Positions 20,311 through 36,579 of a stretch of 64,000 nt of DNA are shown one piece after another. A model generated the notes under the pieces. The model saw nothing but the letters and a program-made list of their open reading frames with translations. It was not told the DNA's origin and did no database searches. Origin of the DNA: Dehalococcoidales bacterium. GTDB taxonomy: Bacteria > Chloroflexota > Dehalococcoidia > Dehalococcoidales > RBG-16-60-22. The position numbers were made by a program, and so were the translations under genes. How positions within the stretch are numbered: position 1 is the first letter of the stretch; each line of letters begins with the position of its first letter. Location: positions 457 through 64,456 of the forward strand of contig JBAZGT010000005.1 of assembly GCA_041652735.1 (NCBI GenBank). Reading direction: 5' to 3'.

Positions 20311-22143
20311 CTATTTCCAGCCGGTGAGATGATAGACCACCACGCTCTCCGCCTTGCCCTTGAAAGCCTGCGGCTCCAGCGGCGTGGCCTCGATATGGTC
20401 TTTAATCTGGCGGTAGGTCTCCGGGCCGAGCCATACCTCGGTGCCGGGGGTGGCGGAGCAAATGCGGGAGGCCAGGTTGACGGCGTCGCCGATTACCGTG
20501 TATTCGGTGCGGCCCGATGAGCCCACGTTGCCGGCCAGCACGTCCCCGGTATTGATGCCGATGCCGAACTGCACCCGCGGCAGGGAAGCGTCTTTGGCCT
20601 GCATCTCGCTGATAGCCTGCTGGGCTTCCCAGGCCGCCTTGGCCGCCAGCCGCGCGTGTTCCGCCTGGGCCTGGGGGGCGTTCCATACCGCCATGATATT
20701 GTCCCCGGCGAACTTGTTGACCATGCCGCTGTTGGCCAGCACTTTATCTATCATCACGGAGAGATAGGTATTCAGCATGTGCACGATTTCTTCCGGGGAC
20801 ATCTGCTCGCTCATCTTGGTGAAGCCGCGGATATCAGCGAAGAGAATGGTCGTTTGCCGGCGCTCGCCGCCCAGCTGCAAAGTGCCGCTGTCCGCCAGGT
20901 TGAGAATCTGGTCGGCCACCTGCGGCGAGACGTACCTGCCGAACAAATCTTTGACGAAGCGCTTGTCCGACTGCGCGTAGATAATCATGGCGATAATGCT
21001 GGTGATGTACACGAAAATCAGCATTATCGGCGGATAAAGCAGGTTGAGTATATGGCCGCGGTCGAAGGCGAAAAAGCTGATGACCAGGTAGCCGATAAAC
21101 AGCCCCGCGGTCAAAAGCCCGCCCCACTTTAGCTTGATGAAGGGCAGCGCCAGCGCGGTGATGACCAGCAGCAGGAGCATAATCCAGAGCGTGGTCAAAT
21201 TACCGGCCTCGGTCAGGAACAGGCTGCGCAGGATGGTGTCCATGGTGGCGGCGTGGATGTAAACGCCGGGGACTTTAACGGCGGAGGTGGGTATTCCCCA
21301 GGCGTCCACGTCCCCGGTGGCGGTCATGCCGATGACCACGATCTTGTTATTGACCACCTGCGGGTCGAAGCTGCCGCTGATAACGTCGCCGTAGGAAAGG
21401 TAGGGGCGGTCCTCGCCCTCGGCGGAAAAGTTGATGCGGAGCTGGTATTTTTCATCCACCGGCACATCGCGCGCCAGCAGGTGCAAAGCGCCGTTCTCCC
21501 GTACGTACTCCTCCGGGAAAGGCATATTGAACAGGGTATGCAGCATGGCCAGGCTGAAGGAGGGGAAAACGTTTCCGGACTCGTCCCGGGCTATCAGCGG
21601 CAGGCGCCGCACCTTGCCGTCCCGGTCCGGGATGATATTGGCGTGGCCGGTAGCCGCGATGACATTCCAGAAAGCCGGCACCGGCGCCAGGAAATAATCG
21701 TAGGTGATGGTGCTGTCGATAAGCGGCACGGCCCTGGAGCCGACCACCGGCAGCACGACGTTGCCGGCGTTGGCGATGGCGGCGGCCAGCTGTGTGTCAT
21801 GGGCCGAGGCATCCACGAAAAGGACATCGTACCCGATTACCTTGGCCCCGGCGGCGCTCAGATTATTTATGGCCTGGGCGTGCAGGTCCCGGGACCAGTC
21901 CGACCACTTGCCGTAGGTCTGCAAAGTGGCGTCATCTATGCCGATGACCACGATATTGGGGGAGGGAGCTTCAGCGGTAAAGAGCTGGTCCGTCAGCCAC
22001 AGCTGTACGCTGGCAAACGGCTGCACGAAGGTGGTAAAAAGGATAAAGACCAGGCCGACGGCCAGGAGCGCCGCTATATGAGAGCGCCATTTGCTCTGCC
22101 GCCGGTTGACCGTTTTTTTACTGGTTCCAGTTTTGGCTGACAT
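20311..22143 (-). CDS. CHASE2 sensor domain plus class III adenylate/guanylate cyclase
   Basis: 610 aa. N-terminal TM, periplasmic CHASE2-like region, three TM helices, then cyclase motifs ILFADIRGFT, KFAGDNIMAVW, GINTGDVLAGNVGS and YTVIGDAVNLASRI. Confidence 0.85.
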   Translation of the reverse strand: MSAKTGTSKKTVNRRQSKWRSHIAALLAVGLVFILFTTFVQPFASVQLWLTDQLFTAEAPSPNIVVIGIDDATLQTYGKWSDWSRDLHAQAINNLSAAGAKVIGYDVLFVDASAHDTQLAAAIANAGNVVLPVVGSRAVPLIDSTITYDYFLAPVPAFWNVIAATGHANIIPDRDGKVRRLPLIARDESGNVFPSFSLAMLHTLFNMPFPEEYVRENGALHLLARDVPVDEKYQLRINFSAEGEDRPYLSYGDVISGSFDPQVVNNKIVVIGMTATGDVDAWGIPTSAVKVPGVYIHAATMDTILRSLFLTEAGNLTTLWIMLLLLVITALALPFIKLKWGGLLTAGLFIGYLVISFFAFDRGHILNLLYPPIMLIFVYITSIIAMIIYAQSDKRFVKDLFGRYVSPQVADQILNLADSGTLQLGGERRQTTILFADIRGFTKMSEQMSPEEIVHMLNTYLSVMIDKVLANSGMVNKFAGDNIMAVWNAPQAQAEHARLAAKAAWEAQQAISEMQAKDASLPRVQFGIGINTGDVLAGNVGSSGRTEYTVIGDAVNLASRICSATPGTEVWLGPETYRQIKDHIEATPLEPQAFKGKAESVVVYHLTGWK

Positions 22144-22166: not shown

Positions 22167-24536
22167 CTAAGAGTAATGGGTTACCGTAAAGGTAAGTTCC
22201 AGCGTTACGGAGTGGCCCAGGCTGTCCGTCACCTCTATAGTAAATGTGTACGGCCCTTCCAGGTCTGGCGTACCTGAGATGATATTGTCTACCAGTTCAA
22301 GGCCGCTGGGAAGTTCACCGCTGCTTATTTGCCAGGTATACGGACCGGTGCCGCCCAAAGCCGTTAATGTCAGTGAATATGGGTCCCCAACGTTGGGCTG
22401 ACTGTATTCGCCCAGGCTGATGGCCATCACGACCACGCTGGCTACATCCGTGGCGGTGGCGTGCCCCTCGCCGTACATGATGTTGCCGCTGGCCTGGGCG
22501 GAGTTGCTCAAAGTGCCGATGTCCCCCTCCGTGGCGGTATGGACGGAGGTGAACTCCCAGGTTTCGTTAAAGTCCAGGATGCCGTCGCTGTCCAGGTCGC
22601 CGCTATGGTAAACGGCCGCGCCGGTGACGTTGTCCGTCACGGTGATTTCGTTCAAAAGGTTGGTGCCGGTATTGGTGACCAGGTAGGTATAGGTGATGTT
22701 ATCGCCAACGTAGGCGACGGCGGCGGATGGCGTCTTGACGATGGCGATGTCAGGCTCGAAACCGGAGGCGTTGCCGGAAGGCCATTCTATCATGGCGGCG
22801 TTCCAGGTATCATCTTCATTTTCCAGCAGGTGGGTGCCTTCCCATACCTTGACCCCGTTTATCCAGATTTTCACCGTGGCGTTGGTGGGGACATCCCCGC
22901 TGAAATAATAGACATCGAAATAGTAGATGCCTTCATAAGAGGGCTGGAGCAGGGTGATGTTCTCCGGGCCGTAGCCGGAGGTTACATCCGTGTCCAGGGA
23001 CGGGTTATCCGTGGTAACACCCTCGGCTCCCCAGTCCGGGTTGGGATTACCGAAGTAGCAATCGCCGGTACTTTGCCATTCCGCGCCGGGGCGGAGGAAA
23101 TGAGAGTCCAGGTCCGTATTGTCGGTATCCCAGGTCAATTCCACCCAGATGCCGTAAATGGGAATATCGGCGTTGACGGTGATGGTATCGCTGGCTATAT
23201 CCTGGCCGTCGGTAGCGGAAACGATGATAACGTTCACGCCGTTGGAGATATTTTCATTCAGGTTGAAACCACCGCCGTTAAAGGCTATGGCGTGGGTCTC
23301 CCCGTTGATGCTGATGTTGCCGCTGACAGCGGTGTTACCGATCAGGCCCTGTATATTAATCGTCCTGGTGGAGACGGCGGCCCCGTCCGCCGGGGTGGTG
23401 ATTATCACGTAAAGACCGGAAAGTATAACCACCTGGGCGTGGTCCGTGCTGATGATGCTGAATTCATAGGAAGGAATATTCGCGGAAAAGGTAGCGCTGT
23501 TGACCAGCGGTGTTGCGTCACCCTCGCCGACTACATGGGCGGCGGTGAAAGTCCAGGTTTCGCCCGGGTCCAAAAGAGAGTTGGCGTTGGCGTCACCTCC
23601 CGCGTAGACTGGCGTGTCGGCGATGTTATCCGTCACCCGGACGTTAGCCAGGACCAGATCCCCGGTATTGGTGATGAAGTAGGTATAGGTGATTGTCTCG
23701 CCCATGGCCGCCTGCGCGCGGTCGGGGTTTACCCCGGTGGTCACGCTGGCTTTATATACCGGCGCGGGCGGGGTGGTGGTGGGCGGCGTTTCTATAGGCT
23801 CCGGCTGGCCGGGTTCCTGTCCGGGGACGATGGTAACTTGATAGCCTTCCGGAATGATTACCTCTTTACCCTGGGCGTAGACCCGGATATCGCCGTGCTG
23901 GTTGCCGACGATGGTGGTGCCGTCACTCATCACGGTGACCGTCATGGTGCTGCCGCGCACGGCGGCTACGGCGGACTGGGTTTCTATCTCGTAGGTGGAG
24001 GCGGAGTCGGTCAGTTTATTGACCCGGCTCACCGTGGTGCCGATAAACTGCGTCATATGGATGGTGGTGGAGCCGGTGGCGGAGAGGCTTATGCTGTCAA
24101 AAGCAATCTCGGTGCCCGCTTCGAGCTCGATAGTGCTGCCTTCGAAGAAGGTAATCTCGGCGCTGGAGTCCGGCCCGGATTTCAGCGTGTCGCCGGGTTC
24201 CAGGGTAGTGCTTGCCTCAACCCTTACCCACGTGGTGGTGCCGGCCCGCTGGACAAAGACATCGCCGCCGGTCAGGGAAAGCACCGTTTGCGGCGTGGCG
24301 GGCTCGGGCGGGGTGGTCGCCGGCGGTGTGGTGGCTGGAGGAGTGGTGGCCGTGGGGGTGGGCGTAGGTGTCCCCGATGGCGCGGGCGTCGTTATTGACG
24401 GCGCGGGGGTGGTCGCCGACGGCGTCGGCGAAGACTCGCTTTTCGTACACCCCCCGAAGGCGATGATGCCCACCAGCAAAACGATGAGCAGCGTAGTCAA
24501 GACTTTTTTCCCGGGGAACCAGCGGCTTAGTTTCAT
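22167..24536 (-). CDS. Secreted or anchored FecR-domain protein with DUF11-like repeats and a C-terminal Ig-like repeat
   Basis: 789 aa. Signal/lipobox-like N-terminus (IAFGGC), T/P-rich linker, FecR-like segment (VFVQRAGTTTWVRVEASTTLEPGDTLKSG), two ITYTY.ITNTG DUF11-type repeats, and a C-terminal GTGPYTWQISSGELPSGL repeat. It ends 23 nt upstream of the cyclase gene. Confidence 0.7.
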   Translation of the reverse strand: MKLSRWFPGKKVLTTLLIVLLVGIIAFGGCTKSESSPTPSATTPAPSITTPAPSGTPTPTPTATTPPATTPPATTPPEPATPQTVLSLTGGDVFVQRAGTTTWVRVEASTTLEPGDTLKSGPDSSAEITFFEGSTIELEAGTEIAFDSISLSATGSTTIHMTQFIGTTVSRVNKLTDSASTYEIETQSAVAAVRGSTMTVTVMSDGTTIVGNQHGDIRVYAQGKEVIIPEGYQVTIVPGQEPGQPEPIETPPTTTPPAPVYKASVTTGVNPDRAQAAMGETITYTYFITNTGDLVLANVRVTDNIADTPVYAGGDANANSLLDPGETWTFTAAHVVGEGDATPLVNSATFSANIPSYEFSIISTDHAQVVILSGLYVIITTPADGAAVSTRTINIQGLIGNTAVSGNISINGETHAIAFNGGGFNLNENISNGVNVIIVSATDGQDIASDTITVNADIPIYGIWVELTWDTDNTDLDSHFLRPGAEWQSTGDCYFGNPNPDWGAEGVTTDNPSLDTDVTSGYGPENITLLQPSYEGIYYFDVYYFSGDVPTNATVKIWINGVKVWEGTHLLENEDDTWNAAMIEWPSGNASGFEPDIAIVKTPSAAVAYVGDNITYTYLVTNTGTNLLNEITVTDNVTGAAVYHSGDLDSDGILDFNETWEFTSVHTATEGDIGTLSNSAQASGNIMYGEGHATATDVASVVVMAISLGEYSQPNVGDPYSLTLTALGGTGPYTWQISSGELPSGLELVDNIISGTPDLEGPYTFTIEVTDSLGHSVTLELTFTVTHYS

Positions 24537-24861
24537 ATATTTCTCCTGTTGCGCAGCCTGAACCGGCTAAAAGTCCGGATTATGGTCCGGCGGCGGAATG
24601 GCGGGCGTTGCAACGCGCAGCCTTGCCTTTCGTCCCTGTTTCTGATATTCTTTTAGCCGAAAGTAAGTTACTCCGTTTACCAAAGTTACGCCTGAAACGG
24701 AGTAGACATTTACGCTTCAGTATAATTCCACGCAGGTGAGTTGTCAACACCGCCTGAGGCTGGGGGCGGCATCAGGGGGTGGCAAATGGACGGTTACTTT
24801 AACGGTAATGCAAAGAAAAATTTTAGCCGACCGGAAAATTTAAAGCCCCGGGGCGCGATGG

Positions 24862-25872
24862 ATGTATAAAAAGTATATCTGGTGCGTCATCATCCTGGCG
24901 GTCATCGTCATTGTGGGCTCCGTGGGGTACTGGCTCATCAGCGGCGGCGGCTACCCTTTCTTCGACTATATCTACATGACGGTGATAACCATCACCACCA
25001 TCGGCTTCGGTGAGGTGATTGACCTGGCCGGCAACACCGGCGGCCGGATATTCACCGTCTTTATCGCCCTCTCCGGCATCGGGGTGCTGGCTTATATCAT
25101 CACCAATTTGACCGCCACCGTCGTGGAGGGGCAGCTGACCAAGTCATTCAGGAGGCGCAGGATGGAAAAATTCGCCGAGAAAGCCAGAGGCCATTACATC
25201 GTCTGCGGCATGGGCTGGGCCGGCCATCACATCGTCCACGAGCTGCGGGAGACCAAGCGCTCCCACATTATTATCGACGTCGACGAAAGCAAGATAGAAA
25301 AAAGCCTGGAAACCCTGTCCGGCTCGGTGTTCATCGAGGGGGATGCCACGGACAATAATATCCTGCTAAAAGCCGGCATCGAGAAAGCGGCCGGGCTGTT
25401 CGCCGTCACGCCGGATGACAACCAGAACCTGGTCATCTGTTTTTCCGCCCGGCAGCTCAACCCGGCGCTGCGCATTGTGGCGCAGTGCAATGAAATCAAG
25501 AACCAGGATAAAATGAAACAGGCCGGGGCGGATTCCATCGTGTCCCCGGGGTATATCAGCGGGATGCGCATGGCATCGGAGATGATACGGCCCACCGTGG
25601 TGGGCTTCCTGGACCGGATGATGCGGGGCCGGGATGAAGCTTTGCGGGTGGAGGAAATAGCCGTGCCCAAGTCCTTCGCCGGCAAACCGTTTTCCTCGCT
25701 CGACCTGAAAAAGTTTCCCCGCACTTTGGTGCTGGCCATTAAAAAAGGGGATGAATGGATATATAATCCCTCCCGCAACGAATGCAGCCTCGACTGCGAT
25801 GACAAGATAATCGTCATGACCACGCCGGAAGAAAGAAAAGACCTGGAGGGCTGTTTTAATCATGAACCGTAA
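24862..25872 (+). CDS. Potassium channel with RCK (TrkA-N/TrkA-C) domains
   Basis: 336 aa. Two TM helices flank the pore signature TTIGFGE; then the GMGWAGHHIV Rossmann motif and a TrkA-C-like tail. Confidence 0.8.
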   Translation: MYKKYIWCVIILAVIVIVGSVGYWLISGGGYPFFDYIYMTVITITTIGFGEVIDLAGNTGGRIFTVFIALSGIGVLAYIITNLTATVVEGQLTKSFRRRRMEKFAEKARGHYIVCGMGWAGHHIVHELRETKRSHIIIDVDESKIEKSLETLSGSVFIEGDATDNNILLKAGIEKAAGLFAVTPDDNQNLVICFSARQLNPALRIVAQCNEIKNQDKMKQAGADSIVSPGYISGMRMASEMIRPTVVGFLDRMMRGRDEALRVEEIAVPKSFAGKPFSSLDLKKFPRTLVLAIKKGDEWIYNPSRNECSLDCDDKIIVMTTPEERKDLEGCFNHEP

Positions 25873-25920
25873 ACTTTTCCCGTTGGCTGAGGCGGGTAGG
25901 GAGGGGGGCATCGCCCGCTC

Positions 25921-26691
25921 ATGAAAGTTACACTCCTGGGAGCCCACAGCAGCGAGACCACGGCGGCCAGGTGCATGTCTATCCTGATAGACGGCAAGCT
26001 GGCCATAGACGCCGGGTCGCTGACCTCATCGCTTTCCCTGGAAGAACAGAAAAGCCTGAACACCATTTTGCTGACCCATGCCCACTTCGACCATATCATG
26101 GACATCCCGCTACTGGCTTTAAACTCTTTCCGCATGAACGCGAGAATTGATATTTACGCCCGGCCGCACGTGCGCGCCATTATCCAGGACCACCTGCTTA
26201 ACGGCCATGTCTATCCCCGGTTCCAGGGGCTGCCGGCTAAAAAGCCCACCATCAGCTTCCGCAGTATCACCCCGCTGCGCCGGAGACAGATAGCCGGTTA
26301 CCAGGTGCTGGCGGTGCCGGTGAACCACGTGGAGGGCACGGTGGGCTACCAGGTAACCGACGCCCGGGGCAAATGCGTGTTTTATACCGCGGATACCGGC
26401 CCGGGACTGCACGAGTGCTGGAAGCGCGTGTCCCCTCAGCTCCTGATTATCGAGACCACCATGCCCAACGGCCAGGAGGACTATGCCCGCCGCACCGGAC
26501 ACCTGACGCCGGACTTGCTGCTGGCCGAGCTGACGGACCTGTGGGCGGTCAAGGGCGAGCTGCCGCGTATCGTGGTGGTGCACCGCGACCCGCTGCTGGA
26601 GGACGAGGTGGTGGAAGGGCTGGCCGCCGTGGCCAAAACTTTAAAGACGGATATCACCGTAGCCGCTGAAGGTATGCAGCTGGAGCTTTAG
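25921..26691 (+). CDS. MBL-fold hydrolase resembling class II cyclic-nucleotide phosphodiesterases
   Basis: 256 aa. Contains THAHFDHIMDIP. Colinear paralog of 35809..36579 (roughly 40-50% identical by eye). Confidence 0.55.
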   Translation: MKVTLLGAHSSETTAARCMSILIDGKLAIDAGSLTSSLSLEEQKSLNTILLTHAHFDHIMDIPLLALNSFRMNARIDIYARPHVRAIIQDHLLNGHVYPRFQGLPAKKPTISFRSITPLRRRQIAGYQVLAVPVNHVEGTVGYQVTDARGKCVFYTADTGPGLHECWKRVSPQLLIIETTMPNGQEDYARRTGHLTPDLLLAELTDLWAVKGELPRIVVVHRDPLLEDEVVEGLAAVAKTLKTDITVAAEGMQLEL

Positions 26692-26746
26692 TGCCGGCCG
26701 TTTTTCCGGCGACGTCCCCGCCGGGCCGGAGACAAGGAGGAACAAA

Positions 26747-27301
26747 ATGTCTACAACCAACCTGCCGATTGTACTGAGAATCCTGGACAACGAGAACCGA
26801 CTGGTGGAACGCGCCGACCAGAAATCGATATCGCTGCTGTCTATCCTGGGCGTGTTCATGGTCTTCTTCGTCGTCTATTACCGCATTATCCCCATCAACA
26901 TCTTTACCGGGGTAATAATCACCCTCTATTTCTTTTGCGCCCTGTACGCCATTGTCAGCCTGGTCATGGCCATCAGGCCCAGGATCCGGCGGGACACCAT
27001 CGATACCGAGGCGAAAGACAACGCCCTTACCTGCGACCCCGCCTTCTTTACCGGCATCTGCACCTTCCCCACCGCCGCCGCCTACAAAAATACCCTCCAG
27101 GCATTGCTCCAGGACGATGCGCAGATTGCGGATATTTACATCCGCCAGATTTTCAGCGTGGCCAAGATAAACGCCGCCAAGTACCGGCATGTTCAGCGCG
27201 GCTCTATCCTGGTGATTTCCTGCCTGGCCATTGAGCTGACCATGATTGTGTACCTGTTCCTGTACTACATGGACATAGGTAAAATGCCGCCCATAACGTA
27301 G
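26747..27301 (+). CDS. Membrane protein resembling the Pycsar effector PycTM / DUF5706 family
   Basis: 184 aa. N-terminal helix with ERADQKS (AD-x-K motif), two TM helices, then a helical tail ending in a third hydrophobic helix. The family assignment is from memory of the Pfam profile and was not searched. Confidence 0.4.
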   Translation: MSTTNLPIVLRILDNENRLVERADQKSISLLSILGVFMVFFVVYYRIIPINIFTGVIITLYFFCALYAIVSLVMAIRPRIRRDTIDTEAKDNALTCDPAFFTGICTFPTAAAYKNTLQALLQDDAQIADIYIRQIFSVAKINAAKYRHVQRGSILVISCLAIELTMIVYLFLYYMDIGKMPPIT

Positions 27302-27373: not shown

Positions 27374-28042
27374 TTAGGCGTTCTTGATAAAACGGTAGCC
27401 GATGTTGCGCACCGTCTCTATGTAAGTGTGGTTGCCGTCCTCTATTTTGCCGCGGAGCCGCCGTACGTGGACATCCACCGTCCGGTCCCCGCCGAAGTAG
27501 TCATACCCCCAGATTTTATCCAGTAGCACCTGGCGGGTATAGACCCGTCCCTTGCTGGCGGCCATCAGTTTCAGCAGCTCGTACTCTTTAAAGGTCAGCT
27601 CCACCTTGCCGCCGTTGACCGTGACCTCACAGGTCACCATGTCTATGGTCAGACCGTCGCACCTTATCTCATCGGGGTTGACGCTGTCCCCGGAGCGGTG
27701 CAGCAGGCGGTTCACCCTCAAGACCAGCTCCGACTCTTTATAAGCGCCGACGATGAAGTCGTCTATCTCCGGGTGGTCGTCGAGCACGGTCAGTGCCTGT
27801 TCCGGCACCAGGGCGATGAGGGGCAGGTCCGGCCGTTTCTTCAGGCGGGAGATGAGCTTCCACTCCCGGGCATCGTCGCGGCCGCTGAGCTCCAGGATAA
27901 CCAACTCCGGCGCCTGGCGGGAAAATTCGGCGGCGGCGTTATCGTAAGACACGGCGGCACAGGCGAATCCGCTCCGCGCCAGGGGCGCCTGGATGGAGAG
28001 CGCCGTTTTAGCTTCCGCGGTTACTATCAGCAAACTGGTCAT
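27374..28042 (-). CDS. OmpR/PhoB-family DNA-binding regulator with a degenerate receiver domain
   Basis: The track ORF is trimmed to MTSLLIVTAEAK.... The C-terminal wHTH (LTFKEYELLKLM...VDVHVRRLRGKIE...VRNIGYRF) is intact. Receiver residues are replaced: DD to AE, the phospho-Asp to Glu (LVILELSG), and the conserved Thr and Lys are absent. Confidence 0.75.
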   Translation of the reverse strand: MTSLLIVTAEAKTALSIQAPLARSGFACAAVSYDNAAAEFSRQAPELVILELSGRDDAREWKLISRLKKRPDLPLIALVPEQALTVLDDHPEIDDFIVGAYKESELVLRVNRLLHRSGDSVNPDEIRCDGLTIDMVTCEVTVNGGKVELTFKEYELLKLMAASKGRVYTRQVLLDKIWGYDYFGGDRTVDVHVRRLRGKIEDGNHTYIETVRNIGYRFIKNA

Positions 28043-28125
28043 CGTACCTTTTCCGGCGGGTAGCGCCGGGGCTGATGATTCACGGCTGGCAACGGTTTGC
28101 GTTAACATTATACACCCAACCCCGC

Positions 28126-28890
28126 CTAATAGGCATAAAGTCGGCCGTAAGGCCGGAGCCACTTGGGATACAGCTTGATGAACTTGCGGCCGAGTATTTC
28201 CGCGGCATCGTAGCCGAAGAACGCCGCGAAGGCCGTGACGTGCTCTTTCAGGACGACCATGTCTTTTTCATCGAGCCCGGCGGTGCCTACCTCTTTACCC
28301 AGTTGGAATGGGGCGACGTTGCCCTGGATGTATATGACGCCGCCGTGCATGCCCGTGCCGATGTACTTGGCGCAGTGGTTGCGGCTTTCGCCCAGGGTCA
28401 GGCCCAGCATAATCAGCACGCCGCCGGCCATATATTCGCCGACAAAGTCCTGCGCCGTCCCGCCGATGACGAGAACCGGCTTCTTTTCCTTATATTCCTT
28501 CATGTGGATGCCGGCGCGGTAGCCCACGTCCCCGCGGATATAGATTTTGCCGCCCCGCGCGGAAAGCCCCACCGTATCACCGGCGCGGCCGTGGACCACT
28601 ATCTGCCCCTCGTTCATGGTGTGGCCGCAGCCGTCCTGCGCGTTGCCGTGGACGGTGATGCGCGGCCCGTTCATGAAAGCGCCCAGGTCGTTGCCGGGGG
28701 TGCCGTGTATCTCCAGTTCCACCGGCTGGTTCAGGTCGGTGCCCAGGTAGCGCTGGCCGTGAACGTTACGCAGCTCTATTTTCCCGGCCCCGGCCGCCAC
28801 CAGCTCCCGCAGGCGGGTATTGAGGTCCCGGTAGTAAACGCCGGCGGTATCGATAGTGGTTACGGATTCTTTAATCATAGTCGTCGTCAT
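28126..28890 (-). CDS. Glutamate synthase GXGXG-domain subunit (archaeal-type GltB domain 3)
   Basis: 254 aa. Repeated beta-helix pattern: HGTPGNDLGAFMNGPRITVHGNAQDGCGHTMNEGQIVVHGRAGD. Confidence 0.8.
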   Translation of the reverse strand: MTTTMIKESVTTIDTAGVYYRDLNTRLRELVAAGAGKIELRNVHGQRYLGTDLNQPVELEIHGTPGNDLGAFMNGPRITVHGNAQDGCGHTMNEGQIVVHGRAGDTVGLSARGGKIYIRGDVGYRAGIHMKEYKEKKPVLVIGGTAQDFVGEYMAGGVLIMLGLTLGESRNHCAKYIGTGMHGGVIYIQGNVAPFQLGKEVGTAGLDEKDMVVLKEHVTAFAAFFGYDAAEILGRKFIKLYPKWLRPYGRLYAY

Positions 28891-28891
28891 A

Positions 28892-30394
28892 TCAGTTACC
28901 TGCCATTCTTATGCCCAGTATATTCAGCTCGGTATCGGACAGGCCGATGCCGCGCAGGTGCAAACGGTTGCCGCGCAGACTTTCCAGGGCGTTGACGCCC
29001 AGCCCGCCGAGTATATCTTTCAGCTCGATGCTCCAGCCGCGGAGCAGGTTGGCCGCCCGCCGCGCCCCTATTTCCGGGTTGATACGCTTGGTCAGGCGGA
29101 GGTCCGTGGTGCAGATGCCCCAGGCGCACTTGCCGGTATGGCACTGCTGGCAGACGTGGCAGCCCAGTGAGATTAATGCCGCCGTGCCGATGTTGACCGC
29201 GTCCGCCCCCAGGGCGATGGCCTTGGCGATATCGCCGCTGTTGCGGAAGCCGCCGGAAACGACGATGGACGCCAGGTGCCGGATGCCTTCCTGCCGCAAG
29301 CGACTATCGATGGAGGCCAGCGCCAGCTCGATGGGGATGCCCACGTTATCGCGGATGACCTTGGGCGCCGCCCCGGTCGCCCCCCGCAGCCCGTCGATAA
29401 CCACGATGTCCGCCCCGCCCCGCACGATGCCGCTGGCGATGGCGGCGGCGTTGTGGACGGCGGCTATTTTCACGGCTATGGGCTTGGTATAGTTGGTCGC
29501 CTCTTTCAGGGCGTAAATCAGCTGTGACAGGTCTTCGATGGAGTAGATATCATGGTGGGGGAAGGGCGAAAGCGCATCGGTGCCTTCCGGAATCATGCGG
29601 GTAAGCGAGACCTCGGCGCTGACTTTCTCGCCGGGGAGGTGTCCGCCGATGCCGGGCTTGGCGCCCTGCCCGATTTTAATTTCCACGATACGCCCGGCGT
29701 TAAGGTATTCCGAATGTACGCCGAAGCGCCCGGACGCCACCTGGACGATGGCGTTCTGCCCGTACTTGATAAGGCTGGGGTGCAGGCCGCCCTCGCCGGT
29801 GTTCCAGAGGGTGCCGGTTTCCGTGGCCGCCCGCGCCAGGGACTCCTGGGCATTCAGGCTGATGGAGCCATAGGACATGGCGGAGAACATGACGGGCATT
29901 TCCAGCCGGACCTGCGGCGGAATTTTGGTCTTCAGTTTGCCGCTGGCGTCCACCTCGACGCGCTCCGGCTTGCGGCCCAGATAGGTGGTCAGTTCCATCG
30001 GCTCGCGGAGCGGGTCGATGGACGGGTTGGTCACCTGGCTGGCGTTGAGCACTAAATGGTCCCAGTAAATGCGCTGCCCTTTGTCATCGCCCATGCCGGT
30101 AAGCAGCACGCCGCCGGTCTCCGCCTGCTTGGTGATGTCCTCGATGATATCCGGCCGCCAGTTATAGTTGCCGCGGTAGTCCAGCGGGTTGTAGGTCACT
30201 CTTAAAGCGTTGGTGGGGCAGAACACCTCGCAGCGGTGGCAGCCCACGCAGTTTTCTTCCTTGCTCTTGATTTTGTCCTCTTCGGCATCGTAATAGTTGG
30301 CGCCGAAGCTGCACTGGTTGACGCAGACCTGGCAGCGGATGCAGCGTTCGTCGTCACGGTGTATTAAAAATTTGGATGTTAGTAAAGTTTTCAT
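28892..30394 (-). CDS. Glutamate synthase FMN-binding subunit (GltB domain 2) with an N-terminal 2x[4Fe-4S] ferredoxin domain
   Basis: 500 aa. Contains CIRCQVCVNQC and CVGCHRCEVFCP, then the GEGG, GAKPGIGGHLPG and DGLRGATGAAP TIM-barrel motifs. Confidence 0.85.
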   Translation of the reverse strand: MKTLLTSKFLIHRDDERCIRCQVCVNQCSFGANYYDAEEDKIKSKEENCVGCHRCEVFCPTNALRVTYNPLDYRGNYNWRPDIIEDITKQAETGGVLLTGMGDDKGQRIYWDHLVLNASQVTNPSIDPLREPMELTTYLGRKPERVEVDASGKLKTKIPPQVRLEMPVMFSAMSYGSISLNAQESLARAATETGTLWNTGEGGLHPSLIKYGQNAIVQVASGRFGVHSEYLNAGRIVEIKIGQGAKPGIGGHLPGEKVSAEVSLTRMIPEGTDALSPFPHHDIYSIEDLSQLIYALKEATNYTKPIAVKIAAVHNAAAIASGIVRGGADIVVIDGLRGATGAAPKVIRDNVGIPIELALASIDSRLRQEGIRHLASIVVSGGFRNSGDIAKAIALGADAVNIGTAALISLGCHVCQQCHTGKCAWGICTTDLRLTKRINPEIGARRAANLLRGWSIELKDILGGLGVNALESLRGNRLHLRGIGLSDTELNILGIRMAGN

Positions 30395-30658
30395 TTCAGT
30401 TTCCTCTTAAGTTTCCTCTCCCCTCCGCGGGAGAGGATTAAGGCGAGGGGGTACCCGAATCCCTCTCGCCTCTCCCTTTATTAAAGGGAGACGATATCAT
30501 TTTCCCGGTACTATGTTCCTTATTTAACCTTTACTATTGTCCCTCTTTGAAAAAGAGGGATTAAGGGAGATTTTTTAACGCTTTCCCCCTCTCCTCCCCG
30601 GGATTCTTCGCTTCGCTCAGCATGAAAATCCAGGCAAATCCCTTCAAACTAATAGTCC
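30395..30658. repeat. Cluster of family-B/A hairpin elements inside the glutamate synthase operon
   Basis: Hairpins include TCTCCCCTCCGCGGGAGAGG, CTCTCCCTTTATTAAAGGGAGA, CCCTCTTTGAAAAAGAGGG and GGATTCTTCGCTTCGCTCAGCATGAAAATCC. Confidence 0.65.
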
Positions 30659-31801
30659 TTACCGCGCCGCCGCTTTCTCTTTAGCTTTGGTCATGGGCCG
30701 GGCCGCCGACTTCAGCCGCGCGATGACCGGCTCCCCGCCCACCGGGCTCCAGACGTTGTCCAGCTCCGGGCTGACCAGGCGGATGGCGGATTCCTCGGAA
30801 GAGAGATAGACCATATCGCCCTTTTCCCCCACCACCATGGGCCGCAGCCGGATGCGGTCGGTCAGGCCGATCATCTCCCCGCTGTGGGCGATGATAATGG
30901 CGAAGGGCCCGTTCAGCAGCAGGCTGCCGTAAGTCAGCCGCAGCGCGCTGTCGAGCTCCCGCTCGGCCTCCGGCATCCGCCCGATGTCGTCCCAGAAGGG
31001 CGCCGCCAGCACTTTAACGGCTATTTCCAGCGGCAGGTTATGCTTGCGCATCAGCAGGTCCACCGCGTAGGCTATTACCTCCGTGTCCGTCTGCATGGTG
31101 CACTGGTAGCCGAACTGCTCCAGGTAGCGGCGGTTGATGCCGTAAGAGGAGATTTCCCCGTTATGCACCACCGTCCAGTCCAGGATGGAGAAGGGGTGCG
31201 CGCCGCCCCACCACGCCGCCGTATTGGTGGGGAACCGCCCGTGGGAAGTCCACAGGTAGCCTTTATATTCCTCCAGGCGGAAGTATTCCGCTATTTCCTC
31301 CGGGAAGCCCACCCCCTTGAAAACGGCCATGTTCTTGCCGCTGGAGAATACGAAGCTGTCATTGGCGCTGGTGTTTATCTGCATCACCTTGGACACCACG
31401 TAATCGTCCGCGGAAAGCTTTTCCGTCAGGGTGTCCGGGACATCCACGTAATAGCGGTAGACCAGCGGCGGGTTCTTGATGGCCGCCGTGGCGCGGGTGG
31501 GCACCTCTTCCTGGTAGGCTACCGTAAAATTGTCCCGCAAAAACGCCTCGGTGTCCTGCTTGTCCCGTCCGCTCAAATACATCAGGTGCAGCGCGTACTT
31601 GTCCGCGTGCTCCGGGTACAGGCCGTAAACGGCGAAGCCGCCGCCCAGCCCGTTGCCGCGGTCGTGCATGTTGGCGATAGCCCGGATAACGCCCTCCCCG
31701 GAAAAGCGCCGGCCGGACTTGTCCATCGCGCCGAATATGGAGCAGGCGTCGATTACTTTATCGTCGCCGAAGGTGTTATTAATGCGCAGGAAGTTTTTCA
31801 T
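30659..31801 (-). CDS. Class II glutamine amidotransferase subunit (GltB domain 1)
   Basis: The track ORF is trimmed to the ATG at 31799-31801 (MKNFLRINNTFGDDKVIDACSIFG...). A catalytic-type Cys sits in the ACSIFG context, with the RGNGLGGGF and HNGEISSY patterns. Confidence 0.8.
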   Translation of the reverse strand: MKNFLRINNTFGDDKVIDACSIFGAMDKSGRRFSGEGVIRAIANMHDRGNGLGGGFAVYGLYPEHADKYALHLMYLSGRDKQDTEAFLRDNFTVAYQEEVPTRATAAIKNPPLVYRYYVDVPDTLTEKLSADDYVVSKVMQINTSANDSFVFSSGKNMAVFKGVGFPEEIAEYFRLEEYKGYLWTSHGRFPTNTAAWWGGAHPFSILDWTVVHNGEISSYGINRRYLEQFGYQCTMQTDTEVIAYAVDLLMRKHNLPLEIAVKVLAAPFWDDIGRMPEAERELDSALRLTYGSLLLNGPFAIIIAHSGEMIGLTDRIRLRPMVVGEKGDMVYLSSEESAIRLVSPELDNVWSPVGGEPVIARLKSAARPMTKAKEKAAAR

Positions 31802-31823
31802 GGGAAATCCTTTCCGGGAAATA

Positions 31824-33149
31824 CTAGTGTCCGGTGACGGCTGCCGCCGGCTTTTCCGCCGCGGCGGGCCTGGCCAGCTTGGAGCGCCATAGCGACTCCG
31901 GCAGGGAAGCCAGGCCGAAATCATCGGCCACGAGGGCTTGCTTGAAGGCGGAAACGTCCGCGCCGTCTTTCATCAGGTTATAGACAATCCCGGACTTCTC
32001 GATATCCCCGGCGTAAATAAGCCCCGCCAGTTTGCCGTTTTTCAGTATTACCTTGCGGTAAATGCCGTCCCGCCGGTTTATCAGCGTTTCATAAGAGTTG
32101 TCCGGGGAAACGACCAGCCCGGCCGATACCACGTTAACGCCGAAGTATTTCAAAGCGTTCATGGCGGTGCCGCCTTTATATTCGGTGGGCTGCCCGGCCA
32201 TGTTGAGCCCGGCCACCCGTCCCCCCTCGTAGGCGTTGGGCCAGATGGGGGTGAGGCGGTTGTTGCCGGTAACGAAGTCGAAAGCCTCGGCCACATCGCC
32301 GCAGGCGTAAATATCCTTTTCCGAAGTCTCCATGTGGCGGTCGACGGTGATGCCCCGGCCGGTCTTGATGCCGGTCCCGGTCACCAGGTCCAGGCGCGGC
32401 CGCACGCCGATGGCCGCGATTACCATCTCGCAGTGTATCAGCCGCCCGTCGTCCAGGGTCACGCCGCTGACCTCGCCGCGCAGGTTGCTGTTAATCCTGG
32501 TCACGGTATGCCCGGTGATGATGGTCACGCCGGCCAGCAGCAGCGCCGTGGTTTCCATGGCGGAGGCCTCTTCATCCAGGATGGTGTTCAGGATGCGGTC
32601 TTTCATCTCCACGATAACCACGTCCATGCCCCGCTTCATCAGCGCTTCCGTGACGCTCACGCCGATAAGCCCCCCGCCGATGACCACCGCCTTGAGCCGC
32701 CGGTGCGGGTTGAAGGCCGCGTCTATGGCTTTGGCGTCATCGAGGCGGTTAAAGGTAAACACGTTCTTAAGGTCGATGCCTTCCGTATTGGGCACGATGG
32801 GCGTGCCGCCGGTCGCCAGCAGCAAATGCTCCCAGGTCAGCATCAGTCCGCTGGCCAGGGCGGCGGTGCGGGCGTCGGGGTTTATCTTGAGCGCTTTATC
32901 GCCCAGGATGGCCCGCGCCCCGTTCTTCTCGTAAAAATCCGGCTTGCGGTACAGCATCCGGTCGATGGGCCCGGGGTGCGCCAGGTAGTCCGAGATAAGC
33001 GGCCGGGAATAGGCGGGGTAGGGCTCATCGGAGACGATGGCGAGCGTGCCCGCCGTGTCCGCCTCGCGTATAGCTTCCGCCGCGCCGATAGCGCCGGCCG
33101 AGTTGCCGATAATCAGATACTCTAATTTTTTCACTGTCATTTGAATCAC
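31824..33149 (-). CDS. FAD-dependent pyridine nucleotide-disulfide oxidoreductase family protein
   Basis: 441 aa. Dinucleotide folds YLIIGNSAGAIGAAE and VVIGGGLIGVSVTE, plus ACGDVA. Confidence 0.75.
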   Translation of the reverse strand: MIQMTVKKLEYLIIGNSAGAIGAAEAIREADTAGTLAIVSDEPYPAYSRPLISDYLAHPGPIDRMLYRKPDFYEKNGARAILGDKALKINPDARTAALASGLMLTWEHLLLATGGTPIVPNTEGIDLKNVFTFNRLDDAKAIDAAFNPHRRLKAVVIGGGLIGVSVTEALMKRGMDVVIVEMKDRILNTILDEEASAMETTALLLAGVTIITGHTVTRINSNLRGEVSGVTLDDGRLIHCEMVIAAIGVRPRLDLVTGTGIKTGRGITVDRHMETSEKDIYACGDVAEAFDFVTGNNRLTPIWPNAYEGGRVAGLNMAGQPTEYKGGTAMNALKYFGVNVVSAGLVVSPDNSYETLINRRDGIYRKVILKNGKLAGLIYAGDIEKSGIVYNLMKDGADVSAFKQALVADDFGLASLPESLWRSKLARPAAAEKPAAAVTGH

Positions 33150-33167
33150 CTGAATGTGGGGATATTT

Positions 33168-33605
33168 TTAGATGTCCGCGTAGACCAGGGCCTCGTTGGG
33201 GCAGTTGGCCACGCAGACCGGTATTTCTTCGTCCTGGCAGAGGTCGCACTTGACCATCACCTTTTTCACGTTATCCAGCCTGGGCACGCCGAGCGGGCAG
33301 GCCAGGGCGCAGGTGCCGCAGCCGATGCAGCGCTCTTCATCCACCTCTATCAGGGAGGTTACGGGGTCGCGCGATAAAGCGCCGGTGAGGCAGGCGCGGA
33401 GGCAGGGGGCGTCCACGCAGTGCTGGCAGCGCACGGAGAGGGAGACGACGCCGCTTTCATCCACGCGGAGGCGGGGGATGGCGCGGGGGCTCTCTTTTTT
33501 GTAGGCTTTGACCAGGTCTTGGGTGCCGGCGTGCTTCTGTAGGCAGTAGACCTCGCAGAGGTGGCAGCCGATGCAGACCTTGTCCTTGATAATGACCTGT
33601 TTCAT
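33168..33605 (-). CDS. 4Fe-4S dicluster ferredoxin-domain protein
   Basis: The track ORF is trimmed to the ATG at 33603-33605 (MKQVIIKDKVCIGCHLCEVYC...). It has several CxxCxxCxxxC(P) motifs. Confidence 0.8.
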   Translation of the reverse strand: MKQVIIKDKVCIGCHLCEVYCLQKHAGTQDLVKAYKKESPRAIPRLRVDESGVVSLSVRCQHCVDAPCLRACLTGALSRDPVTSLIEVDEERCIGCGTCALACPLGVPRLDNVKKVMVKCDLCQDEEIPVCVANCPNEALVYADI

Positions 33606-33957
33606 ATTGCCCCCAAAAGATGCGGAATGCGGCAACCGATTACCGCATGTTAATAATATCAAATTACAAATGGTTTGTCAATACCGCCCGTATGAAATAT
33701 TTATTGCGGGAGGCCGGGGTGGCGCCGTAGCGCCGGTACTACTGCCGGTTGTGAAGACGGCGGCGTTATTTACCCCGCCCCCCTTTACCGGAAAGACCCG
33801 CCGCGCCGGGAAAAATCTGTAGCGGACGGTACCCGTTAACGTTACCTGCCTTTATTAACAAAAAATTTAGGCATTTCATAGCTGTGTTTATGTTTTATTT
33901 ACATCCTTGAGACTAATATTACCTTAGAACTAATCTATAGTAACGGATGTAGTAAAA

Positions 33958-34536
33958 TTGGTGGAACGAGTCATCGTCAGGAGAATAAGGAGCAGCCGGC
34001 AGCGTTCGGCGTTCCCCGGCGCGCAGGGCAGCGGCATCAAGCTGCTGAATGAGGAAATCGCCCGGCGGTTCAACCCGGCCATGCTGGACCTGGGCGATGT
34101 CAACATGCCTTGCCAGGAAAAAGAGGCGGTAGCCGCCGTCTTCGACCTTACCGGCTTCACCAATTTCTGCAACCAGGTGGACGCCTACCTGGCTATACCC
34201 CGCTTCCTCAATAAATTCCTGGACTGGTTTTTTACCAGCATCAAGGAAGGCATGACCGAGGAAAACGACGGCACCCGCAGCACCTTCTGGATGGAGCTGC
34301 CCGTGCTCGTTAAGTTCCTGGGCGATGGGCTGCTGGTGGTCTGGGACGCCCACCATCTGACGGAAGAGCAAATATGCCGCCGGACTATGCCCGGATGTTC
34401 GTACCCAAATACGTTTCCATCAAGGGAGCGGGGGGAGGACGAGCAGGTCTGGGTAGCTAGAGATGAATTTGAACGGTTGCCGGAAAGGACCCGGCAGCAT
34501 TACTGTTCAATGGAAACTGTAGCAGCGTTCGCCTAG
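33958..34536 (+). CDS. Short class III nucleotidyl-cyclase-like ORF (atypical or possibly degenerate)
   Basis: AVFDLTGFTNF and KFLGDGLLVVW look like the two metal-Asp motifs of class III cyclases. I cannot find the downstream RxGxHxG and GxxVNxAxR segments in any frame. The start is uncertain: TTG at 33958, or ATG at 34081 or 34105. Confidence 0.4.
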   Translation: MVERVIVRRIRSSRQRSAFPGAQGSGIKLLNEEIARRFNPAMLDLGDVNMPCQEKEAVAAVFDLTGFTNFCNQVDAYLAIPRFLNKFLDWFFTSIKEGMTEENDGTRSTFWMELPVLVKFLGDGLLVVWDAHHLTEEQICRRTMPGCSYPNTFPSRERGEDEQVWVARDEFERLPERTRQHYCSMETVAAFA

Positions 34537-34576: not shown

Positions 34577-35773
34577 ATGAATATGGTGAATAGTCAAGAA
34601 ATAACGCGCCCGGAATACAGTCCGCCCAGCTCGGTGGAGCAGGAGAACAGCAGCCGGCTGCAAATGATTTTTGAGATAAACCGGAGAGACCTCTCCCAGA
34701 TGCGCGTGTCGAAGATGCTGGAGCAGGTCATCAGGATGACCCAGCGGACGCTTAACGCCGCCGCGGCTTCCATCCTGCTCTTCCGGGACAGCAGCCAGGA
34801 GCTGTACTTCGAGGCGGCTACCGGCACGGTTGGCAAAGCGCTGCGCCAGGTGAAACTCAATACCCAGTACGGCATCGCCGGGCAGGTGGCGCGCACCGGC
34901 AAGCCGCTTATCGTTAACGATGTCAGCCGCAGCACCAATTTCCACAAGATGATAGATGACACCACCGGCTTTACCACCAGGTCGCTGCTCTGCGCCCCGC
35001 TGAGTGTCAACAACAAGATACTCGGCGTCGTGGAAGTATTGAACAAGAAGGATGGGACTATTTTCGGCGAGCAGGACCTGGAAACGGTAATCTCCGTAGC
35101 CAACATGACGGCGATGGCTATAGATAATACCCGGACGCACCAGACTATGCTGGAAGCCTACAAAAACACCATCAAGGCTATGGCCGCGATGGTTGACGCC
35201 AGGGAGCTGTATGCCAAAGGGCATTCCCTGCGGGTGATGGAGTACATCGTCAAAGCGGGGGTGGTCCTCTGCCTCAACGCCGAGGAGTTGGAGCAGCTGG
35301 AATACGCCGGTATGATGCATGACATCGGCAAGATGGCGGTTGATTCCAGCATCTTGAGCAAGCCCGGGCCGCTGACGTCGGCGGAGTGGAAAATAATGCA
35401 GAATCACCCGCTGGCGGGCGCTGACTTCTGTTATGAAATCCCGTTCCTGGATAAGGTGGGGGAAATCGTGCTCTGCCACCATGAAAAATACGATGGCGCC
35501 GGTTATCCCAACGGCTTTAGCGGCGAGGATATACCCCTGGGGGCGCGCCTGCTGGCTGTCGCCGAAGCGTTCGATACCATGACCACCGACCGCTCTTACC
35601 GCCCCGCCATGCCCATAGACGAGGCCGTCAGGGAGCTGAACAGCTATGCCGGCAGCCAGTTCTGCCCCGTGGCCGTCAAGGCTTTGATTTCCGCGCTGCG
35701 CCTCAATACCTTGAAAGCGGCGCCCCGGGATTTAGCCCAGATGAAAGGTTTACCGGACCTGGGTAAACTGTAA
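34577..35773 (+). CDS. GAF domain plus HD-GYP phosphohydrolase
   Basis: 398 aa. A GAF-like N-terminal half (AASILLF...YFEAATG...GIAGQVARTG...DVSR), then the HD (MMHDIGK) and HHEKYDGAGYP motifs. Confidence 0.85.
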   Translation: MNMVNSQEITRPEYSPPSSVEQENSSRLQMIFEINRRDLSQMRVSKMLEQVIRMTQRTLNAAAASILLFRDSSQELYFEAATGTVGKALRQVKLNTQYGIAGQVARTGKPLIVNDVSRSTNFHKMIDDTTGFTTRSLLCAPLSVNNKILGVVEVLNKKDGTIFGEQDLETVISVANMTAMAIDNTRTHQTMLEAYKNTIKAMAAMVDARELYAKGHSLRVMEYIVKAGVVLCLNAEELEQLEYAGMMHDIGKMAVDSSILSKPGPLTSAEWKIMQNHPLAGADFCYEIPFLDKVGEIVLCHHEKYDGAGYPNGFSGEDIPLGARLLAVAEAFDTMTTDRSYRPAMPIDEAVRELNSYAGSQFCPVAVKALISALRLNTLKAAPRDLAQMKGLPDLGKL

Positions 35774-35808: not shown

Positions 35809-36579
35809 ATGGATATTCGCATTCTCGGCGCGCATAATAATGAGTCCACCGGCACCAGTTGCGTTACTTTCCTCGTGGACGGCACGCTGGCGGTAGAGGC
35901 CGGCGGCCTCACTTCCCGGCTCACCATGGAGGAGCAGCAAAAGCTGGACGCGGTCATCGTGACCCATCACCACCTGGACCATATCCGGGACATTCCCGGT
36001 CTGGCCCTTAACCTGTGCCGCCTGGGCTCCAGCCTGGACGTGTATACCACCCCGGAAGTCGGCGATGTTATCAAAGACCACATGCTGAACGCGGTGGTGT
36101 ACCCGGATTTCCAGAATATACCGGAAAAGAAGCCTACGCTGGTCTTCCTGGAGATAGAGCCTTACGGCTTGCAGTGGATAGACGGCCACAGTATACTGCC
36201 GGTGCCGGTGCACCACTCCGGCCAGGCGGTAGGCTATCAAATCAGCGATAAACAAGGCAAGACTTTATTTTATACCGGGGATACGGGGCCGGGGCTCAAT
36301 GAGTGCTGGCGGCATGTTTCCCCGCAGCTGTTGATTATAGAAGTAACTTTTACCAACGCCTGTGAGGAGATGGCCCGCCAAACGGGGCACCTCACGGCGC
36401 GTTTGCTGGAACAGGAGCTTGTCAGCTTCCGGGAGATTAAAGGATATCTGCCGGAGGTACTCGCCATCCACCTTGACGCCGTGCTCGAGTCCACCATCAG
36501 GGAAGAGCTGGCGGCGGTAGCGGCCAACCTGCAAATTCCCATTACCGTGGCGCGGGAAGAAATGCGGTTAACGGTCTAG
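35809..36579 (+). CDS. MBL-fold hydrolase resembling class II cyclic-nucleotide phosphodiesterases (paralog of 25921..26691)
   Basis: 256 aa. THHHLDHIRDIPGL matches the HxHLDH class II PDE signature as I remember it. Confidence 0.55.
   Translation: MDIRILGAHNNESTGTSCVTFLVDGTLAVEAGGLTSRLTMEEQQKLDAVIVTHHHLDHIRDIPGLALNLCRLGSSLDVYTTPEVGDVIKDHMLNAVVYPDFQNIPEKKPTLVFLEIEPYGLQWIDGHSILPVPVHHSGQAVGYQISDKQGKTLFYTGDTGPGLNECWRHVSPQLLIIEVTFTNACEEMARQTGHLTARLLEQELVSFREIKGYLPEVLAIHLDAVLESTIREELAAVAANLQIPITVAREEMRLTV

Follow-up and report, generated by a model that had tools for sequence, protein, structure and literature searches.

A putative cyclic AMP module in Dehalococcoidales linking a CHASE2 sensor cyclase with a K+ channel, a metallo-beta-lactamase-fold protein and a PycTM-like membrane protein

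Why would a relative of an antiphage membrane effector be encoded side by side with a K+ channel and a putative phosphodiesterase? The question is raised by three same-strand genes of a Dehalococcoidales bacterium (assembly GCA_041652735.1, contig JBAZGT010000005.1), from which we analysed one stretch of 64,000 nucleotides (nt), here called the window. The genes encode a two-transmembrane (two-TM) K+ channel with RCK domains, a metallo-beta-lactamase (MBL)-fold protein of 256 residues that we call MBL-1, and a protein of 184 residues that resembles PycTM, the effector of Pycsar defence systems. A preliminary description, made from the sequence alone, had proposed a membrane module gated by cyclic nucleoside monophosphates (cNMPs) with a built-in signal terminator, serving either defence or physiology. 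A module of this kind is still the best-supported reading, but distribution and genomic context now favour physiology. From sequence and comparative analysis, we give about an even chance to the idea of a chromosomally inherited cyclic AMP (cAMP) module of five genes with a physiological role, in which these three genes supply the output, through the membrane and K+, and the reset.

A first line of evidence is gene linkage. The three open reading frames are separated by 48 nt (25873-25920) and 55 nt (26692-26746), exactly as first reported. When one genome of each GTDB species was scanned, 80 loci with a PycTM gene came up, 30 Dehalococcoidia species among them. We searched these loci with the window proteins and counted a partner as linked when it lay within 10 kb of the PycTM gene. 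Within Dehalococcoidia, MBL is linked in 8 of the 30 species and the CHASE2 cyclase together with a FecR-domain protein in 10, with three further loci ending at contig edges. In two species (L024 and L026) a soluble mini-cyclase replaces the CHASE2 cyclase while channel, MBL and PycTM are kept, so that a cyclase of one kind or the other stands near the PycTM gene in 12 species. Only about 1% of a ~2-Mb genome is expected to fall within 10 kb of any given gene, and the channel lies that close to the PycTM gene in 14 of the 30 species, far above chance.

Five genes travel together in Dehalococcoidales metagenome-assembled genomes, those for the CHASE2 cyclase, the FecR protein, the channel, the MBL and the PycTM-like protein. 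Channel, MBL where present, and PycTM gene follow one another in the same direction in 13 module loci, and seven gene orders were seen in total (K, channel; cyc, CHASE2 cyclase): cyc< FecR< / K> MBL> PycTM>; the same order minus MBL; K> Kef> MBL> PycTM>; K> PycTM> MBL> <cyc <FecR; PycTM> <cyc <x <FecR <MBL / K>; PycTM> x> x> <cyc <FecR <MBL <K; and <K <MBL <mini-cyclase <x / PycTM>. Because the linkage outlasts both rearrangement and a swap of cyclase type, with channel, MBL and PycTM staying together, we regard it as strong evidence for a functional unit. The triad is syntenic in related genomes, and one point of the preliminary description has to be revised. It had held that the effector's neighbours do not include a cyclase, the nearest being a CHASE2 enzyme on the opposite strand; the position and strand of that gene are correct, but the enzyme and the FecR protein are both conserved members of the unit, so that a cyclase partner for the effector exists after all, albeit one of a sensor type with predicted purine specificity and not a PycC. 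A Kef-type antiporter with Na_H_Exchanger and TrkA_N (RCK) domains stands between channel and MBL in one variant (L009:2112-3842, +) and, in a different species, converges on a PycTM gene that has no other linked partner (L019:10646-11986, -), making it a second RCK-regulated cation transporter associated with a PycTM-like protein.

The cyclase itself is predicted to make cAMP. The closest solved structures to its catalytic domain are Cya2 and P. aeruginosa CyaB, and it carries the motifs FADIRGFT, NKFAGDN and YTVIGDAVNLASR, in which the metal-binding Asp and the Asn/Arg transition-state pair are present. At the two specificity positions it has Lys ('VNKFAGD') and Thr ('EYTVIGDAVNLASR'), the same as in CyaB, whereas the guanylyl cyclase Cya2 has Glu and Gly at the base-specifying positions; we presume that these positions play the roles established for class III cyclases in general. 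The protein combines a CHASE2 domain with the metal-binding, transition-state and base-specifying residues of a class III adenylyl cyclase. PycC models from PADLOC also match its cyclase domain (E 1e-27), but we rejected a pyrimidine cyclase, as this match is no stronger than that of the generic Pfam cyclase model and the residues are of the adenine type.

In related loci the FecR protein always adjoins the CHASE2 cyclase. The FecR domain is kept (57-66% identity), while the remainder of the protein, with its Ig-like, DUF7507 (CLIPPER) and He_PIG repeats, varies in length and architecture. FecR-domain proteins are also paired with HisKA_7TM-GAF-GGDEF-HD enzymes (L005:8579-12247; L091:8902-12258), and in L112 a CHASE2-cyclase, a FecR, a GAF-HD and an MBL gene follow one another in one direction. 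Given these pairings, FecR-domain proteins of this clade seem to partner second-messenger enzymes quite generally on the extracytoplasmic side. A precedent for part of this arrangement exists in Sinorhizobium meliloti, where the CHASE2 receptor cyclases CyaD1, CyaD2 and CyaK produce physiological cAMP and FecR-domain proteins belong to the regulon (PMC5498481). The two systems share a CHASE2 sensor on a class III cyclase, cAMP (here predicted) and FecR-domain proteins, but the output in S. meliloti is the transcription factor Clr, whereas the linked output candidates here are membrane proteins. Our literature searches, on CHASE2 and FecR with adenylate cyclase and on cAMP in Dehalococcoidia among others, found no description of the present arrangement, and the term 'DUF5706' gave nothing, in agreement with the earlier impression that the arrangement had not been described.

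The family assignments first proposed for the channel, MBL-1 and the PycTM-like protein withstood hidden Markov model, profile and fold comparisons, and the Pfam models for PycTM, Lactamase_B_2, PDEase_II and TrkA_N all match. The 184-residue protein exceeds the gathering threshold (GA) of PF18967 (51.2 bits against 27.2) and aligns end to end with the PADLOC PycTM model PDLC02364 (residues 11-172, E 4.6e-14). Canonical PF18967 members score 94-128 bits, which places it in a divergent subfamily. The preliminary description had recognised it by an AD-x-K motif in the N-terminal helix, two TM helices and a helical tail. Motif and family hold, the motif being part of an 'ERADQK' stretch (residues 21-26) that is invariant in 31 homologues, but we find three hydrophobic segments, at about residues 29-47, 52-76 and 152-177 (by hydropathy, a hairpin at 25-80 plus 151-177). 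An AlphaFold2 (AF2) model is all-helical (mean predicted local distance difference test score, pLDDT, 72.6; helices 5-47, 52-76, 110-122 and 124-177). Three TM segments with a helical cytosolic region are the layout of PF18967, and PycTM has been described as belonging to the "3TM pJV1-SpdB3 family" (preprint 10.64898/2026.08.12.744502). The ATG is preceded by AAGGAGG 6 nt upstream. Against the Protein Data Bank (PDB), a sequence search was empty and a fold search gave no meaningful match (best E 0.75); a tblastn search of plasmids with this protein also found no match.

Relatives of the protein also occur outside defence loci. Its highly conserved subfamily, of modest size with 374 representatives at E <= 1e-3, is hosted by Dehalococcoidia and Marinimicrobia/Fidelibacterota. 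In the latter group (L038-L087), 39 loci have a conserved protein of ~180 residues encoded after the PycTM-like gene (e.g. L040:10549-11082), which combines collagen Gly-X-Y repeats with a lipoprotein-like N-terminus. Among the more canonical PF18967 members, fusions of an HD phosphohydrolase to PycTM (about 390-430 residues; P0350-P0390, P0391-P0509, L176 and L177 are examples) number more than 6,300 Bacteroidota proteins, recorded for many Spirosoma and Chitinophaga species, and carry the NCBI name 'Pycsar system effector family protein'. At the two such loci whose surroundings we inspected, the adjoining genes are of the housekeeping kind (Omp85, MoeA, Ppk) and a cyclase is absent. PycTM also occurs fused to a CBS domain (P0307). 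The PycTM family therefore extends beyond defence loci, and its coupling to nucleotide hydrolases recurs independently.

The channel is of the MthK type. Alignments to MthK (1lnq, E 2e-28) and GsuK (4gx0, E 1e-30) span the whole protein, which shares with them a two-TM pore, a TxG[YF]G filter and C-terminal TrkA_N and TrkA_C domains. Unlike theirs, its gene stands in an apparent operon with those for a PycTM-like protein and a putative phosphodiesterase. Orthologues keep a TIG[YF]GE filter (TIGFGE in the window) and a GxGxxG...D/E Rossmann signature, and conservation of the latter suggests a nucleotide ligand for the RCK domain. This nucleotide motif is present in GsuK and KtrA and is not known from MthK. 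The channel also has a conserved internal Met101 (25162-25164, 'RRRRMEKF'), at what we take to be the position where MthK internally starts its soluble RCK subunit.

As for MBL-1, fold, profile and context make it a probable cAMP phosphodiesterase of the class II/YhfI type. Its THAHFDH motif occupies residues 52-58, and H53, H55, D57 and H58 (HxHxDH), H136, D158, H194 and H221 are invariant in its relatives; the PROSITE-type class II signature is incompletely matched by HAHFDHIMDIP. The source gene call is 238 residues long (P0121), but the start giving 256 residues is better supported, because homologues conserve the 18 upstream residues (25921-25974), including G7 and H9; GGAGG lies 16 nt upstream of this start. 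A profile of 30 relatives searched against the PDB placed yeast PDE1 at the top (E 3e-9, nearly full length), ahead of RNase Z (2.5e-6), PhnP (3e-5), YhfI and Apyc1. A Foldseek search with the AF2 model (pLDDT 94.5) likewise ranked PDE1 first (6.5e-18, TM-score 0.83), followed by 1zkp/YhfI and then by PhnP, RNase Z and Apyc1. MBL-1 is thus nearer to cNMP phosphodiesterases than to RNase Z, PhnP or lactamases, although the margins are modest. Of 32 family members, 29 match PDEase_II in the Pfam copy that we used and a single one matches its Apyc1 model (E 1.7e-4), that one not being the window protein; precomputed tables based on a newer Pfam list PF23023 for MBL-1 and its relatives. The resemblance to class II phosphodiesterases that had been noted initially is therefore upheld in its class II/YhfI form, whereas Apyc1, whose shared fold had been mentioned, is less close. 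The possibility that MBL-1 is an RNase Z was rejected on its length (RNase Z has about 300 residues or more), on its TIGR02651 score (43.8 bits against a cutoff of 293) and on the rank of RNase Z below PDE1.

PDE1, YhfI and Apyc1 have been placed in one class II-like group, in which YhfI prefers cAMP and cGMP (Hobbs 2022, PMC9117128). MBL-1 shares with these three (4ojv, 6kns and 7u2s, respectively) the MBL fold, an HxHxDH binuclear-metal site, a length of ~250 residues and, apparently, the lack of an RNase Z exosite, but differs in its identity of only 16-20% and in an incomplete PDEase_II alignment. Apyc1 is furthermore phage-encoded and counter-defensive, whereas MBL-1 is host-encoded and lies inside the module that it would regulate. 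In a tree of the MBL proteins from the metagenome scan, context tracks phylogeny across four clades. Members of clades A and B lie in the cyclase, channel and PycTM module or beside GGDEF-HD genes; for clade B, which includes MBL-1, the setting is the module or a neighbouring GGDEF-HD or cyclase gene wherever flanks allow. Members of clade C, among them the paralogue MBL-2, accompany GAF-HD and mini class III cyclase genes. From this context, hydrolysis of cNMPs by clades A to C is a reasonable inference. We rejected its extension to the whole family, since the same scan exposed a large housekeeping clade, clade D (L110, L119, L126, L131, L162 and ~50 other loci), whose members are ~50% identical to MBL-1 and MBL-2.

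Taken together, these assignments outline a possible signalling route. The extracytoplasmic CHASE2 domain of the cyclase, probably in concert with the FecR lipoprotein, would sense a cell-surface cue, and the class III catalytic domain, as predicted from its sequence, would respond by making cAMP. By homology to PycTM and PucTM, cAMP may then act on the three-TM protein, which is presumably co-transcribed with the RCK K+ channel, and the outcome would be a changed membrane conductance and K+ flux. Judging by its fold, profile and context, MBL-1 would hydrolyse the cAMP and reset the system. Domain identities, gene linkage, catalytic residues and the MBL fold are what the analysis establishes; the ligand, the direction of signalling, cNMP binding by the PycTM-like protein and the physiological role are deduced from them. 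The role of such a circuit would more likely be homeostasis of ions, the envelope or the membrane potential than antiviral defence.

A number of observations weigh against this proposal. In 15 of the 30 Dehalococcoidia species the PycTM gene has none of these partners within 10 kb, several variants of the module have no MBL, and every Marinimicrobia homologue is encoded by a gene without a nearby cyclase. No cNMP-binding site could be identified in the PycTM-like protein, in which residues 80-105 are modelled with low confidence and for which there is no solved homologue. The match of MBL-1 to PDEase_II (PF02112; 29.2 bits against a GA of 23.7) is confined to residues 43-102, some 60 residues, and the NCBIfam cNMP phosphodiesterase model NF041851, which aligns from end to end, reaches 31.7 bits, far below its cutoff of 400. 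Members of the large clade D sit in a housekeeping operon, thiolase-CorA-Vut_1-MBL-Mut7-C-Nnr-CoaX, and because of this placement beside a Mut7-C RNase, specificity for cNMPs is not a property of the MBL family as a whole. Finally, wherever a cNMP-activated PycTM-family protein has been characterised, it has been an antiphage effector.

This last point is also the natural starting place for an antiphage interpretation, in which the locus would mediate Pycsar-like abortive infection: the FecR protein with its Ig-like repeats and the CHASE2 domain would form a surface tripwire for phage adsorption or damage to the envelope, a cNMP made by the cyclase would open a PycTM pore and, whether or not the K+ channel takes part, collapse the membrane, and MBL-1 would keep the system off as long as no infection occurs. 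We consider this unlikely. Pycsar, as the work of Tal et al. 2021 is summarised in later sources (PMC11224242; preprint 10.64898/2026.08.12.744502), consists of a PycC cyclase and a PycTM effector, and the window does resemble it in the genomic linkage of a class III-type cyclase with a PF18967/pJV1-SpdB3 three-TM protein, to the point that PADLOC models for both PycC and PycTM match the locus. Furthermore, a regulatory role of host Apyc1-like proteins in Pycsar or other cNMP signalling has been raised as a possibility (Hobbs 2022, PMC9117128), and over the same genome pairs the FecR protein in its extracellular part (47% identity) and MBL (43%) diverge faster than PycTM (62%), channel (63%) and cyclase (61%), as expected of surface or arms-race proteins. 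However, the PADLOC matches reflect generic class III homology, and the cyclase is not a standalone member of the PycC clade but a membrane sensor with CHASE2, TM helices and the Lys/Thr signature of purine cyclases. A channel, a putative phosphodiesterase and a FecR protein are added, and in place of a compact operon there are divergent ones, with cyclase and PycTM gene on opposite strands, 4.6 kb apart and separated by three genes; the two are neighbours, in convergent orientation, in the L018-type arrangement alone. Automated defence finders could call such loci 'Pycsar', the L018 type most plausibly, since both PADLOC models match. Nor does the setting suggest a defence island, mobile context or patchy distribution. 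Upstream of the module (9702-17411) lie genes for NrpR, NAD synthetase (NadE), glutamine synthetase, Amt and an aminotransferase, and downstream (27374-33662) those for an OmpR/GlnR-like regulator and archaeal-type glutamate synthase subunits. Other species have the module next to polysaccharide-synthesis genes. We found no integrases, transposases or recognised defence genes around it in the window. Module-linked and unlinked genes interleave on the PycTM tree, which suggests vertical inheritance, and the PycTM gene appears to evolve at an ordinary rate, although the comparison with flanking housekeeping genes is a weak test, with one usable pair. A scan of viral contigs with the PycTM profile found no relatives, and with the MBL profile it returned two short matches (~50-70 residues, 30-38% identity), both in large viral contigs, that we take for generic MBL similarity. 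The Marinimicrobia homologues and the HD-PycTM fusions in two Bacteroidota genomes, finally, stand in housekeeping contexts without a cyclase, and a phage phenotype is known for Pycsar but not for the present module. A related system, Pucsar, does couple this three-TM family to a purine cNMP: PucC makes cGMP, and PucTM-type proteins form a hexameric membrane channel (preprint 10.64898/2026.08.12.744502). Its cyclases, however, are soluble and belong to an immune clade, and neither a phosphodiesterase nor a K+ channel nor an extracytoplasmic sensor is described there. In its survey of the contexts of cyclases and effectors, that preprint regards physiological cyclases as devoid of conflict effectors, while our locus pairs a cyclase that is, by its sequence, of the physiological sensor type with the PycTM effector family.

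Alternatively, the operon may serve K+ or cation homeostasis with no response to cNMPs, the PycTM-like protein being an accessory subunit, MBL-1 a general phosphodiesterase acting on RNA or 2',3'-cyclic phosphates, and the neighbouring cyclase sharing only regulation or a chromosomal niche. Such an arrangement seems to us quite unlikely. In its favour, the step from channel to PycTM is the tightest link and several variants lack the MBL, the Kef-type RCK antiporter also associates with PycTM, the Rossmann motif of the RCK domain suggests ligands of the NAD or ADP type, the largest MBL clade is the housekeeping one, and half of the PycTM genes have no cyclase nearby. It does not readily account for the recruitment of two unrelated cyclase types, CHASE2 and mini-cyclase, to the same set of channel, MBL and PycTM, nor for the separate clades formed by MBL paralogues near cyclases; MBL-1, moreover, is matched best by cNMP phosphodiesterases in both structure and profile, and the homology of the PycTM-like protein at the family level is to cNMP-activated effectors. 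It could also be argued that the three genes are unrelated neighbours brought together by accident, as their gaps of tens of nucleotides lack overlapping starts. We find this barely credible, with linkage kept in at least 14 species and in all the gene orders listed above, and with no terminator-like site in either intergenic gap, the only matches in the span being weak ones within coding sequence.

The features of the module and of a related trio downstream are collected in Table 1. The region between the divergent FecR and channel genes, 325 nt long, holds blocks that are invariant in an alignment of six species whose proteins are only ~60% identical. One of them contains both hexamers of the FecR/cyclase promoter (TTGACA-N17-TATACT, minus strand). 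The other, CTTGCCT...TTTCTGATATTCT, falls below the threshold of a simple promoter scan and is a candidate for either an extended -10 promoter of the channel operon (TTGCCT-N17-TGnTATTCT) or an element of the 5' untranslated region (5'UTR) of the FecR mRNA. Neither block has an Rfam match, and an Rfam scan of the window from 19 to 38 kb gave zero matches at gathering thresholds. If both blocks are promoters, they would face each other and the 5' ends of their transcripts would overlap by ~50 nt, such that the sensor and output operons could interfere with one another. The sequencing runs that hold the locus are DNA metagenomes only, from groundwater and landfill.

Table 1. Position, strand and supporting matches of the module genes, of elements between them and of the second trio in the window
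Feature	Position	Strand	Basis
CHASE2 + class III nucleotide cyclase, 610 aa, predicted adenylyl cyclase	20311..22143	-	Pfam CHASE2 3e-54, Guanylate_cyc 6e-26
FecR-domain surface lipoprotein, 789 aa, probable extracytoplasmic CHASE2 partner	22167..24536	-	Pfam FecR, DUF7507 x2, He_PIG, DUF11
Conserved block, candidate promoter or 5'UTR element	24622..24651	+	Invariant in six species
Sigma-70-type promoter of FecR/cyclase operon	24719..24747	-	11/12 consensus match
MthK-type two-TM K+ channel + RCK, 336 aa	24862..25872	+	Ion_trans_2 4e-12, TrkA_N 3e-29, TrkA_C 5e-6
MBL-1, probable cAMP phosphodiesterase (class II/YhfI type), 256 aa	25921..26691	+	Lactamase_B_2 2e-15, PDEase_II 6e-7
PycTM/pJV1-SpdB3 three-TM protein, probable cNMP-responsive effector, 184 aa	26747..27301	+	PF18967 1.8e-13
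Degenerate mini class III cyclase, second related module	34081..34536	+	71% identity to L088 233-aa protein, first 100 residues
GAF + HD (HD_5) protein, second module	34577..35773	+	Pfam HD_5 1e-37, GAF 6e-16
MBL-2, MBL-1 paralogue (51% identity)	35809..36579	+	BLASTP E 8e-98

The second trio lies ~7 kb downstream of the module (33958-36579, +) and consists of a mini-cyclase-like reading frame, whose true start is probably at 34081, a GAF-HD (HD_5) protein and MBL-2. The mini-cyclase of the window has lost ~85 internal residues in frame, including the RCG...NNASR catalytic motifs. Intact homologues of 233-274 residues, with a Lys/Asp pair, occur in L088, L090, L024 and L026, and hhalign relates this family to cyclase catalytic domains (90.5% probability, E 1.4e-6). 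An equivalent trio is present in L088-L090.

Our findings bear on how a family known from immunity is viewed more broadly. A possible generalization, which we hold only tentatively, is that three-TM proteins of the PycTM/SpdB3 type are in many bacteria ordinary membrane conductances under second-messenger control that work with K+ transporters and a dedicated phosphodiesterase, Pycsar and Pucsar being a derived, weaponised branch. At present, proteins of the PycTM family are labelled wholesale as a "Pycsar system effector", and automated pipelines could count this locus as defence, whereas our results favour a conserved signalling module. If the module operates as proposed, it would be the first physiological pathway from cAMP to a PycTM-type channel, with an extracytoplasmic sensor at its head, and it would blur the line between immune and physiological cNMP systems that the Pucsar phylogeny draws through effector association. 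It would also offer a natural example of a circuit of cyclase, effector and terminator, a role that Hobbs et al. raised only as a possibility, as well as small, tractable proteins with which to ask how the three-TM family senses nucleotides. For the Dehalococcoidia, a poorly studied and environmentally important class, the module would provide the first hints of second-messenger signalling.

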